NCBI GenBank assembly: GCA_963762445.1 | Contig: CAVXLA010000010.1 | Span: 151,787 to 215,786 of the forward strand | Direction of reading: 5' to 3' | From: an uncultured Chloroflexia bacterium | GTDB taxonomy: Bacteria; Chloroflexota; Limnocylindria; Limnocylindrales; CSP1-4 | Length of the DNA stretch: 64,000 nt | Shown: in pieces, positions 32,350-35,614 of the stretch | Layout of the letters: each line of letters opens with the position of its first letter | Numbering within the stretch: the stretch's first letter is position 1 | Program-made: the position numbers and the translations under genes | The notes under the pieces: model-generated | Database searches by the model: none | What the model saw: the letters and a program-made list of their open reading frames with translations, nothing else | What the model was told of the DNA's origin: nothing

Positions 32350-35300
32350 ATGGCGCTGACGAACAAGGAGCGGATCGGCCGGATGCTCGACGGGCTCGCC
32401 GCTGGCCTCAAGCCGGTCGTCGAGCAGGCGTTCACGCAAGGCGTACGGCCCGACGTGGGTCTCGACCGTCGAGGCGGCGAAGGGACCGGGCGCCGGCTCG
32501 TCCGATCCCGAACGACCCGCAGTTCCTGCTCAACGCCATCTGGTTCCACTGGCAGGACACGCTCGGCAAGACGCTCGGCGTGGCCGAGAGGAACTACGTC
32601 GCCGAGCTGCGCTTGACCCGCAACCGCTGGGCCCACCCGGGCGAGAAGCCGTTCACCGGCGACGACGTCTACCGCGCCTACGACACCGCCGAGCGCCTCC
32701 TCCGCTCGGTCGCCGCGCCCCAGGCCGACGAGCTGGCGAAGGCCAAGGCGACGATCCTCATGGAGAACGCCGTCGCCCAGGCGAAGGACAAGCAGAAGGC
32801 GACCACGGCGGCTCCGGTCGCCGCCGAGCCGCTGAAGGGACTCGCGCCCTGGCGGAGCCTCGCCACCCCGCACCCGGACGTCGCCGCCGGCCGGTACCGC
32901 CAGGCGGAGTTCGCCGCGGACCTCGCCCAGGTCGCCCGTGGCGAGGGCGCCAAGGAGTACGTCGACCCCCGCGAGTTCTTCGCCCGGACGTACCTCACCG
33001 AGGGCCTCCGGCTCCTGCTGACCGGCGCGCTCCGGCGGTTGACCGGGACCGGCGGCGAGTCGGTCGTCGACCTCCAGACGACGTTCGGCGGCGGCAAGAC
33101 GCACTCGATGCTGGCGCTCTGGCACCTCGTCGACCCGGCGATCGCCGGTCGCGAGCCTGCCCGGGCTCGAGGGCGTGCTCACCGAGGCGAAGGTGTCGGC
33201 GCTGCCCGAAGGTCACCCGGGCCGCGATCGTCGGGACGGCGCTCTCGCCGATCACCCCGCGGATCGTCGACGGGACCGAGATCCGGACGCTGTGGGGCGA
33301 GCTCGCCTGGCGCTCGGCGGCGCGGCGGCGTTCGCGACCGTCGCCGAGGCCGACCGGACCGGCGTCCCGCCCGGCGCCGACGCTCTCCGCGCGCTCCTCG
33401 CGGCCCATGCCCCCGTCGTCGTCCTCATCGACGAATGGGTGACCTACGCCCGGCTCCAGTGGGGCAAGGACGACCTGCCGGGCGGCACGTTCGACGCCGC
33501 CCTCTCGTTCGCCCAGCAGCTCACCGGCGCCGTCGACCAGGTCCCGGGCGCGCTCCTCGTCGTGTCGCTGCCGTCGTCGGCGATCGAGGTCGGCGGCGAG
33601 GGCGGCCAGAAGGCGCTCGAGTCGCTCAAGCACGTCGTCCACCGGGTCGACGCGCCGTGGCGCCCGGCGGCGGCCCAGGAGTCGTTCGAGATCGTCCGGC
33701 GGCGTCTCTTCGAGCCGCTGACGGCCGAGGCGATCAAGGGCCGCGACGAGGTCGTCCAGCGGTTCGGCGAGCTGTACGCCCAGCACCAGGGCAGCTTCCC
33801 GGCCGAGACGAAGGAGAAGGCGTACCTCGAGCGCCTGCGGAGCCTGCTACCCGATCCACCCCGAGCTCTTCGACCGGCTCTTCGACGACTGGTCGACGCT
33901 CGAGCGGTTCCAGCGGACGCGCGGCGTGCTCAAGCTCATGGCCGCGGTCGTCCACGCGCTCTGGGAGCAGCAGGACGGCAACCTGCTCATCCTGCCGGCC
34001 GCCATCCCGCTCGACGACACGACGGTCCTCCCGCAGCTGACGCAGTACCTCGACGACAGCTGGCAGCCGATCATCGAGACCGACGTCGACGGGACCTCAT
34101 CGCTGCCGCTGCGGCTCGACCGGGAGAACGCCGGGACGTACGGGCGGTACTCGGCCGCCCGGCGCGTGGCGCGCACGGTCTTCCTCGGCTCGGCGCCGCT
34201 GCCGGCTGCCGCGAACCGCGGCATCGACGACCGACGGATCCTCCTCGGCTCGGTCCAGCCCGGCGAGACGCCGGCGACCTTCGGCGACGCCCTCCGCAAG
34301 CTCGCGGGCCAGGCGACCTACCTGTACGAGAACGCCGGCCGCTACTGGTACGCGACGCAGCCGTCGGTCAACCAGCTCGCCCGCGACCGGGCCGAGCAGC
34401 AGGCCGACGACCGGGTCGAGATGGAGATCGAGCGGCGGCTCAAGGCGGCGCTCGCCGACCGGGGCCCGTTCGCCCGCGTCCACCCGTCACCGAAGTCGGG
34501 GTCGGACGTGCCCGACGAGGACGAGGTCGCGCTCGTCGCGCTCGGGCCCGGAGTACCCGCACGACGCCAAGGCCGCGACGTCGAAGGCCACCACGGCAGC
34601 CGGCGAGATCCTCGCCTCGCGTGGCGCCGGCGCCCGCGCGAACCAGAACATGCTCGTCTTCCTCGTCGCCGACCACCTCCGGCTCGCCGAGCTGACGACG
34701 GCGGTTCGCGAGTACCTCGCCTGGAGCTCGATCGTCGACGACGGCGAGGCCGGCCGGCTCAACCTCGACGCGCTTCCAGCGCAGCCAGGCGAAGTCGCAG
34801 CGCGACGGCGCCGACGAGACCGCCCGCGCCCGGATCCCCGAGACGTACCAGTGGCTCCTCGTGCCCGGAGCAGGCCGACCCGCTCGCGAAGGTGGCGCTG
34901 CGCCCGGTCAAGGTGTCCGGATCAGACCCCCTGGCCGTCCGCGCCGGCGCCAAGCTCCGCAACGAGGAGCACCTGATCACCAAGTTCGGCGGCGTGAACC
35001 TGCGGCTCGTGCTCGACGGCGCGCTCAAGGAGAAGTGGACCGCCGACCACGCCTTCGGGCTGAAGCAGCTGTGGAGCTGGTTCGCCCAGTACCCGTACCT
35101 GCCTCGCCTGCGGGACATCTCCGTCCTCGAGGGTGCCGTGCGCGACGGCTCGTCGAGCCTCCTGTGGCGGTCGGAGACCTTCGCCTACGCGGCCGCTCGG
35201 GAGGCCCCCGGCGAGTACCGCGGGATCGTCGCCGGGCGCATCGCCGAGACGCCGGTCACCTCGACGAGCCTCATCGTCGACGGCTCGGTTCTGCCGGACC

Positions 35301-35614
35301 CGTTGCCGGGCGTCGAACCCCCGAAGCCGCCGCCGCCGGGCCCCGGGCCGGGCCCCGAACCCGTCCGGCGCGTCAGGCGCTTCCACGGCGAGGTGAGCCT
35401 CGGCGACCCGCGGCGACCCATCCCTGAGCTCACGAAGATCGTCGACGAGGTCATCGACCGGCTCGCCCAGCAGACGGATGTACGTCTCCACGTCACCGTC
35501 CAGGTCGAGGCGGAGCACTCGGCTGCCGACGGCTTCGCCGACGACACGGTCCGCACGATCTCCGAGAACGCGAAGACCCTCCGCTTCAAGGACTTCGGCT
35601 GGGAGAAGGAGTAG
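32350..35614 (+). pseudogene. Swt1-like HEPN domain fused to a DUF499 P-loop ATPase (BrxC/PglY-related family); at least 9 frame changes as assembled
   Basis: ATG 32350 lies 10 nt after the MTase stop. Pieces lie in ORFs 32350..32616, 32580..34040, 33175..34695, 33926..35614, 34650..34976 and 34861..35427, plus a hand-read frame. Motifs: PQFLLNAIWFHWQD...LRLTRNRWAHPG (RNRWAH 32619-32636), Walker A TTFGGGKTHSM (33087), TLWGELAWR, Walker B VVVLIDEW, ...FQRTRGVLKLMAAVVHALW..., stop TAG 35612. Confidence 0.8.

Follow-up and report, generated by a model that had tools for sequence, protein, structure and literature searches.

The gene at positions 32350 to 35614 of the window (the whole 64,000-nucleotide stretch of DNA analyzed here) almost certainly codes for a HEPN-fused HmaC, the ATPase component of an Hma cassette with three genes. 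This architecture is already known from entries in Pfam, NCBI, and PADLOC and from two comparative-genomics papers, and as a discovery HEPN-HmaC is of little weight. Hma, known as a methylation-based anti-phage system, is the one listed in PADLOC (Payne et al., 2021). Our best explanation as a whole joins this identity to an RNase-backup mechanism for the HEPN domain and to a reading of the many frame breaks in the gene as assembly consensus errors, and we give it a probability of roughly 0.6. The features, with L002 denoting an intact syntenic cassette used for comparison, are as follows.

26029 to 29511, forward strand: hmaA, Swi2/Snf2 helicase with a C-terminal NOV_C/DUF3883 (PD-(D/E)xK) nuclease, placed by tblastn with the L002 orthologue
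29511 to 32339, forward strand: hmaB, DUF1156 N6-adenine DNA methyltransferase, placed by tblastn with L002 HmaB
32350 to 35614, forward strand: hmaC, HEPN_Swt1 plus DUF499 (ORC/Cdc6-type AAA+) ATPase, from Pfam and PADLOC matches
32380 to 32711, forward strand: Swt1-like HEPN domain of HmaC, residues 11 to 120, PF18731, in three reading frames in the window
32619 to 32636, forward strand: R-x4-H motif R90-N-R-W-A-H95, predicted HEPN catalytic pair, read in the sequence
33087 to 33104, forward strand: Walker A motif GGGKTH, residues 246 to 251, read in the sequence
33415 to 33438, forward strand: Walker B motif VVVLIDEW, read in the sequence

The hmaC gene begins with an ATG at 32350, 10 nt past the hmaB stop codon, and ends with a stop codon at 35612 to 35614. 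As assembled it has no single open reading frame and contains nine frame changes, so that the full protein emerges only after nine single-base corrections; the corrected gene runs through 1085 codons uninterrupted by a stop, and its product has 96% amino acid identity to protein P0001. Matches of the read-through protein to profiles are far above chance level and bear out the original prediction of a Swt1-like HEPN domain in the first ∼110 residues, fused to a DUF499 P-loop ATPase; the gene coordinates and the three motifs that it gave also agree with the sequence. PF18731 (HEPN_Swt1) matches residues 11 to 120 with 91.9 bits against a cutoff of 27.5 (E = 4.4e-26) and spans model positions 1 to 114 of 115, PF04465 (DUF499) matches with E = 1.2e-29, and the PADLOC HmaC model with E = 2.6e-294; the NCBIfam model DUF499_antiphage is also matched, below that model's cutoff. 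The same pair of Pfam domains is present in over 100 full-length homologues, some of which are labeled "Swt1 family HEPN domain-containing protein" at NCBI. Across 66 homologues, none of the Walker A residues G246, G247, G248, K249, T250, and H251 varies, and D360, E361, and W362 of Walker B are likewise invariant among HmaC homologues. After the HEPN domain come a poorly conserved helical linker and the AAA+ ATPase, then a middle part of helical/wHTH type; the C-terminal alpha/beta domain is variable.

The description of the protein as a BREX-type, BrxC-like ATPase is a loose label, of which the DUF499 assignment stands: the matches are to DUF499 and HmaC models, and the BrxC profiles (PF10923 and PADLOC BrxC) give none to HmaC at E≤1. 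A model of full-length HmaC (pLDDT 83.9) matches generic AAA+ ATPases alone in a Foldseek search of the PDB (E = 0.006 to 0.1), with neither BrxC nor MtsA among the matches, and phmmer with an HmaC orthologue finds no PDB sequence at E≤1. With no BrxC among the full-length fold matches, the BrxC-like label is thus based on the literature, in which BrxC/PglY of BREX is reported to be distantly homologous, to share the AAA+, wHTH, alpha/beta, wHTH layout, and to act as a scaffold, and the DUF499 ATPases fall in clades apart from BrxC (PMC12839542). The open reading frames scanned on both sides of the cassette include an ADP-ribosylglycohydrolase, TmtA, and a copper ATPase, and the BREX partners PglZ, BrxL, BrxA, and BrxB are absent from them; the cassette was accordingly rejected as part of a BREX locus.

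The cassette is organized in the conserved order hmaA-hmaB-hmaC, collinear from 26029 to 35614, and the adjoining DUF1156 methyltransferase gene that had been proposed is hmaB. In the L002 cassette the three proteins are 1160, 938, and 1085 residues long. L002 HmaA, with Pfam domains SNF2-rel_dom, Helicase_C, and NOV_C and a PADLOC HmaA match at E = 0, aligns to the window by tblastn in five frame pieces with 95 to 97% identity over residues 1 to 986. L002 HmaB, with PF06634 (DUF1156) and a PADLOC HmaB match at E = 0, is collinear with the window across frames at 49 to 92% identity (tblastn), and the motif IV DPPY is present in the window, starting near 31150. The central target-recognition part of hmaB (∼30200 to 31600) is strongly divergent among strains, with nucleotide identity of 54 to 75% at 30200 to 31600 versus 85 to 97% in its flanks, and the regions flanking the cassette also differ among strains. 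Judged by sequence, the predicted HmaA, HmaB, and HmaC constitute the Hma core in one cassette, and intact orthologues 96% identical to HmaC are present in public metagenomes.

None of hmaA, hmaB, and hmaC has one open frame as assembled, and each has several 1-nt indels. A nucleotide alignment of the window with two intact orthologues, those of L002 and of L001 (a sister assembly), places the nine in hmaC: eight insertions of 1 nt each, at 32437, 32510, 33145, 33204, 33843, 34550, 34773, and 34864, and one base absent after 33312. All nine are private to the window, and they are absent from short-read contigs of four other metagenomes. The hmaA gene has approximately seven window-private single-base indels (26878, 27923, 28987, 29132, 29150, 29207, and 29264), the hmaB frame is interrupted many times, and the neighboring tmtA is broken too, so that four defense genes are affected. 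Outside these genes, housekeeping genes are frame-split as well, with collinear Pfam model coordinates: proC, an amidohydrolase, an ABC ATPase (twice), a branched-chain amino acid permease, and a periplasmic binding protein. Housekeeping breaks lie near 3796, near 4808, and at 56900 to 59400. Frame breaks were counted by a codon-usage Viterbi path with a stop-codon check, alongside Pfam collinearity tests; a GC3-based fragment list with frameshifts everywhere was dropped, as several of its "overlapping fragments" proved to lie in the same frame. The count is at least 28 in ∼15 kb for the defense island (25966 to 41110) versus ∼8 in the ∼49 kb of the rest of the window, a density ∼10 times higher.

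The frame breaks in hmaC are very probably consensus errors of the assembly and not biology, a reading that draws on the substitution pattern, the preponderance of insertions, the broken housekeeping genes, and the private indels of L001. Window-private substitutions in hmaC fall at codon positions 1, 2, and 3 in the numbers 11, 7, and 71, compared with 18, 7, and 94 in the intact L001 copy, and this equal third-position excess (80% in the window) indicates that hmaC has been under selection until now. The alternative, that hmaC, hmaA, hmaB, and tmtA form a truly decayed defense island in this strain and that the frameshifts are real mutations, is in line with their presence in all four defense genes, with the fast turnover of defense islands and the strain-to-strain variation of the cassette flanks, and with the ∼10-fold enrichment, for which uniform random error is insufficient as an explanation. 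We nonetheless consider decay very unlikely, since there are neither in-frame stops nor large deletions, the private substitutions resemble those of an intact orthologue, and essential or housekeeping genes such as proC are broken as well. The indel bias of bacteria is usually toward deletions, contrary to the 8:1 excess of insertions here, and L001 has private 1-nt insertions of the same type, clustered, in its own hmaA. The surroundings of the inserted bases in hmaA and hmaC, inspected by eye for a shared motif of the sort that methylation could produce through basecalling errors, show no evident one. No run with the source reads was found: the best public one contained 19% of the 31-mers, and its reads therefore represent related strains, not the source. 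Looking up the exact protein of an intact open reading frame of the window likewise gave no match. Caution is warranted with any apparent pseudogene in the window, since assembly-type single-base indels cluster in the defense island.

Within the HEPN domain, H95 never varies among 115 full-length homologues, and R90 is kept in at least 90% of them; across HmaC homologues D55, E85, W93, A94, H95, and R108 are invariant and N91 is at least 90% conserved; and RNxWAH is present in ∼124 of ∼130 true matches (∼95%) among representatives of 50%-identity clusters. The R/H pair of the original prediction is thus conserved in ∼95% of diverse relatives, and the ∼95 to 100% conservation of R90, H95, and D55 in relatives down to <50% identity is what a catalytic site would show. 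An AF2 model of the first 140 residues of an orthologue (pLDDT 92.8) is all-helical. Its R-x4-H motif is at the end of the helix 77 to 94, the third core helix, a location demanded by the HEPN fold (PMC3710099), and the helix 56 to 65 has the invariant D55 at its start. The top PDB fold match of the HEPN model is the C-terminal domain of yeast Swt1 (4pqz), and it is a weak one (Foldseek E = 0.26, TM 0.43).

HEPN-DUF499 fusions and their restriction-modification context were already described by Anantharaman et al. in 2013, with Ava_2192 of Anabaena variabilis as the prototype (PMC3710099). A 2026 survey in NAR places HmaC among the Type-1 BREX-related (BR, DUF499-centered) ATPases, with which it shares the HEPN_Swt1 plus DUF499 AAA+ architecture, the RNxWAH motif, and the context of a Snf2 helicase-nuclease and a DUF1156 N6-methyltransferase; there is no difference of substance, the window copy being one in a Limnocylindrales-like high-GC genome and frame-broken as assembled. 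Its host is probably a Candidatus Limnocylindrales (Chloroflexota) bacterium of metagenomic origin. Of the 2446 taxa in which the survey records Type-1 BR/Hma systems, 1370 have the HEPN fusion, and the survey proposes the domain as a last-resort or "backup suicide RNase" (PMC12839542). The domain is thus common, as the original prediction had allowed it might be, but its link to defense stands. A two-layer response, in which DNA discrimination is joined by RNA cleavage, is plausible; the idea had been thought new for the family and was published in 2013 and 2026. In the searchable literature we found no published experiment on the HEPN domain or RNase activity of any HEPN-DUF499 protein. Among Hma proteins only HmaA of Halomonas meridiana has been tested against T4, and this HmaA alone protects against the phage via its nuclease (PMC11232893).

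The only close relative with biochemistry is MtsA of MANTIS (Gao_RL, Type-2 BR), likewise a DUF499 ATPase of the ORC/Cdc6-clade AAA+ type encoded beside a methyltransferase and a helicase-nuclease. MtsA forms a dimer through the ATPase domains at its N terminus; its loading of the methyltransferase is ATP dependent, and it triggers the helicase-nuclease (bioRxiv 10.64898/2026.09.23.753747). Unlike HmaC, MtsA has no HEPN domain; MANTIS also depends on MtsB (DUF3870) as a fourth protein, and the MANTIS helicase has a PLD nuclease, in contrast to the PD-(D/E)xK nuclease of HmaA. By analogy with MANTIS and BrxC, HmaC may dimerize through its N-terminal ATPase region and load the HmaB N6-adenine methyltransferase onto DNA, so that host sites are marked, and at unmodified sites it would license cleavage of invading DNA by the HmaA helicase-nuclease. 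An active HEPN RNase site consists of two HEPN domains side by side. From general knowledge of HEPN domains, that of HmaC, directly ahead of the dimerizing ATPase, could be a latent endoRNase that is switched on by ATPase-driven pairing and then acts as a second-line response of the abortive-infection type. This RNase-backup mechanism stands at about even odds, and its more specific form, in which the endoRNase would be active only when the DUF499 ATPases pair on unmodified invader DNA, is slightly more tentative.

A different role for the domain is conceivable, namely as a noncatalytic module, either a sensor of RNA or nucleotides or a dimerization handle for the ATPase, like the inactive HEPN domain of eukaryotic Swt1. 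The yeast protein is the founding member of HEPN_Swt1, its HEPN domain is inferred to be an inactive RNA-binding sensor (PMC3710099), and this inactive domain is the nearest structural match, albeit the weak one noted above; in addition, ∼44% of Type-1 BR systems function without any HEPN (PMC12839542), such that the domain is dispensable for the core mechanism. However, the yeast domain, although in the same Pfam family (PF18731), no longer has the catalytic motif and is joined to a PIN RNase, whereas the bacterial domain retains R-x4-H, and Anantharaman et al. ranked the Ava_2192/DUF499-fused branch as "Active" (PMC3710099). Together with the conservation of R90, H95, and D55, this makes a noncatalytic role unlikely. 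We regard as more doubtful still that the HEPN RNase is a first-line effector on invader transcripts, parallel to DNA restriction and not a suicide backup. The variable C-terminal domain, predicted to be RRM-like, could bind nucleic acid (PMC12839542), and the sequence does not distinguish targeted from indiscriminate RNA cleavage, but it has no evident module for an RNA guide or for sequence recognition. In other systems, HEPN effectors that are fused to NTPase sensors usually cleave host and invader RNA alike, which also speaks against a first-line role.

The MANTIS biochemistry provides a framework for DUF499 ATPases, and with it RNA cleavage by the HmaC HEPN domain and the trigger for cleavage are directly testable with an intact orthologue. 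If the RNase-backup mechanism is true, a methylation-based DNA restriction system would have a built-in abortive-infection arm, a concept already in print (2013 and 2026) for which experimental proof would be new.

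The ~1085-residue protein encoded by hmaC, the third gene of the methylation-based anti-phage cassette Hma (hmaA, hmaB, and hmaC; also Type-1 BREX-related [BR]), carries an N-terminal HEPN domain fused to a DUF499 ATPase. No single ORF spans 32350-35614 (+), where the coding signal switches among all three frames, and the read-through protein was obtained by joining frames by hand. Residues 11-120 match Pfam HEPN_Swt1 (PF18731; 91.9 bits against a cutoff of 27.5, E = 4.4e-26), and the remainder matches DUF499 (PF04465, E = 1.2e-29) and, below its cutoff, NCBIfam DUF499_antiphage; the HmaC model of the defense-system profile set PADLOC matches from residue 164 (model positions 3-806, E = 2.6e-294). 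Together with the sequence motifs, of which RNRWAH and GGGKTH lie at the positions originally predicted, these matches bear out both the fusion and its domain assignment.

Features of the defense island and its upstream border
23592-25334 (+), ADP-ribosylglycohydrolase ORF, 580 codons (PF03747, E = 3e-50, residues 249-539)
26029-29511 (+), hmaA (tblastn against L002, same gene order)
29511-32339 (+), hmaB (tblastn against L002, same gene order)
32350-35614 (+), hmaC (tblastn against L002, same gene order)
32619-32636 (+), RNRWAH motif in hmaC, read in the sequence
33087-33104 (+), GGGKTH motif in hmaC, read in the sequence
33415-33438 (+), VVVLIDEW motif in hmaC, read in the sequence
35728 to about 41100 (+), tmtA (Tiamat), directly downstream of hmaC (PADLOC)

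The HEPN domain has the pattern of a catalytic one, and activity is predicted from its sequence and modeled fold. Across 115 full-length homologues, six positions never vary (H95, W93, A94, E85, D55, and R108), and conservation is at least 90% at R90 and N91. The window's own HEPN fragment has 1165 matches at E ≤ 0.001 among 1.8 billion cluster representatives, and within the best 150 of these, ~124 of the ~130 genuine matches keep RNxWAH. AlphaFold confidently models the first 140 residues as all-helical (pLDDT 92.8), with the R-x4-H motif at the end of helix 77-94, its expected place in the HEPN fold, and D55 where the core helix before it begins; among PDB folds, the yeast Swt1 C-terminal domain ranks first, although the match is weak (E = 0.26, TM 0.43). 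Database searching finds thousands of relatives, and nearly all of the best 120 are ~1085 to 1130 residues long with both Pfam domains; some of these are named 'Swt1 family HEPN domain-containing protein' at NCBI, and the closest named ones are from Candidatus Limnocylindrales (Chloroflexota).

The frame breaks in hmaC could reflect either gene decay or sequence error, and two related metagenome loci, L001 and L002, provide intact hmaC genes for comparison. The L002 cassette is intact throughout, coding for a Snf2 helicase with a NOV_C nuclease (1160 aa; PADLOC HmaA, E = 0), a DUF1156 methyltransferase (938 aa; PADLOC HmaB, E = 0), and an orthologous HEPN-DUF499 protein (1085 aa). A three-way nucleotide alignment shows exactly nine length differences, each of 1 base and private to the window: eight insertions (32437, 32510, 33145, 33204, 33843, 34550, 34773, and 34864) and one base absent after 33312. 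Undoing all nine restores 1085 codons without an internal stop. A true pseudogene would have acquired these as nine independent inactivating mutations, which is hard to reconcile with the window-private substitutions at codon positions 1/2/3 (11/7/71, in line with 18/7/94 in the intact L001 gene), a pattern pointing to purifying selection on this lineage essentially until the present. Moreover, the L001 hmaA gene has its own clustered private 1-nt insertions (its source assembly has an accession near that of L002), the window's indels are absent from short-read contigs of four other metagenomes, representing related strains rather than the same strain, and housekeeping genes of the window are also split, as judged from collinear Pfam coordinates.

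Frame-split genes elsewhere in the window
near 3796, periplasmic binding protein
near 4808, proC
near 56903, branched-chain amino-acid permease
58210 and 58397, ABC ATPase (split twice)
near 59377, amidohydrolase

For these reasons the breaks are probably assembly consensus errors and the gene is probably intact in nature and mis-assembled here; a genuine pseudogene is quite unlikely. A codon-usage Viterbi path makes frameshift-like switches at least 28 times within the ~15-kb island (25966-41110) versus ~8 times in the other ~49 kb. Errors spread uniformly at random do not account for this roughly 10-fold difference in density; our guess is that the reads covering this variable island were few or came from mixed strains.

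Within the cassette, 10 nt separate the hmaB stop codon from the hmaC start. Comparative sequence evidence identifies the cassette as a mobile module inside a variable defense island, because only 25974-35612 is common to the window and L001 and each of the three loci has flanks of its own. In L001 it lies between a gene with a BrxC_BrxD domain upstream and GmrSD-like (DUF262/DUF1524) and RelA_SpoT genes downstream, and in L002 between UvrD and PDDEXK genes upstream and ResIII helicase and SRA_ScoMcrA genes downstream. In the window, tmtA has many frame breaks, as in the Hma genes; its seven ORF pieces, in differing frames, are collinear on PADLOC TmtA PDLC03971 (12 to 1675 of 1782), a Pfam Sacsin (SACS) domain lies in the N-terminal piece, and GC content falls to ~0.68. 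The ADP-ribosylglycohydrolase ORF just upstream of the cassette lies within a lower-GC stretch, has an N-terminal half (~250 residues) without a domain assignment, and has no PADLOC match. Beyond the island, a copper P-type ATPase ORF (41274-44378) extends across a tRNA-Glu gene (43927-43999, - strand). This overlap suggests that the reading frame is in error near 43542.

The HEPN-DUF499 fusion is not new, having been described by Anantharaman et al. (2013); Payne et al. (2021) coined Hma for the cassette, present in 26 phyla, and a 2026 NAR survey renamed it Type-1 BR. The original functional proposal thus repeats a published hypothesis, a plausible one, and we found no experiments on the HEPN domain of these proteins in the searchable literature. 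The label 'BrxC-like' holds as the remote kinship recognized in the literature and not as BREX membership, because HmaC matches no BrxC model in Pfam and PADLOC searches and no BREX partner genes were found among the flanking ORFs scanned.

Among systems studied biochemically, the nearest is MANTIS (Type-2 BR), whose DUF499 ATPase, MtsA, dimerizes via its N-terminal ATPase domains, loads the methyltransferase onto DNA in an ATP-dependent manner, and sets off the helicase-nuclease at unmodified sites. Of the Hma proteins only HmaA has been tested, and its nuclease is required for defense against T4. By analogy, HmaC may be a loader and scaffold that links methylation by HmaB with restriction by HmaA. 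A helical linker of low conservation (26% identity) connects the HEPN domain to the ATPase, which follows directly. HEPN RNases generally need two HEPN domains together, as in Csm6, Cas13, and HEPN toxins. Since the domain adjoins a putatively dimerizing ATPase, the simplest model is a latent RNase that would be switched on by ATPase pairing and would act as a second-line abortive response.

Within hmaB, 30200-31600 has 54 to 75% nucleotide identity to the L001 and L002 orthologues, compared with 85 to 97% for its flanks and the neighboring genes, and looks like a swapped or diversified target-recognition domain. If so, methylation specificities would differ between closely related strains.
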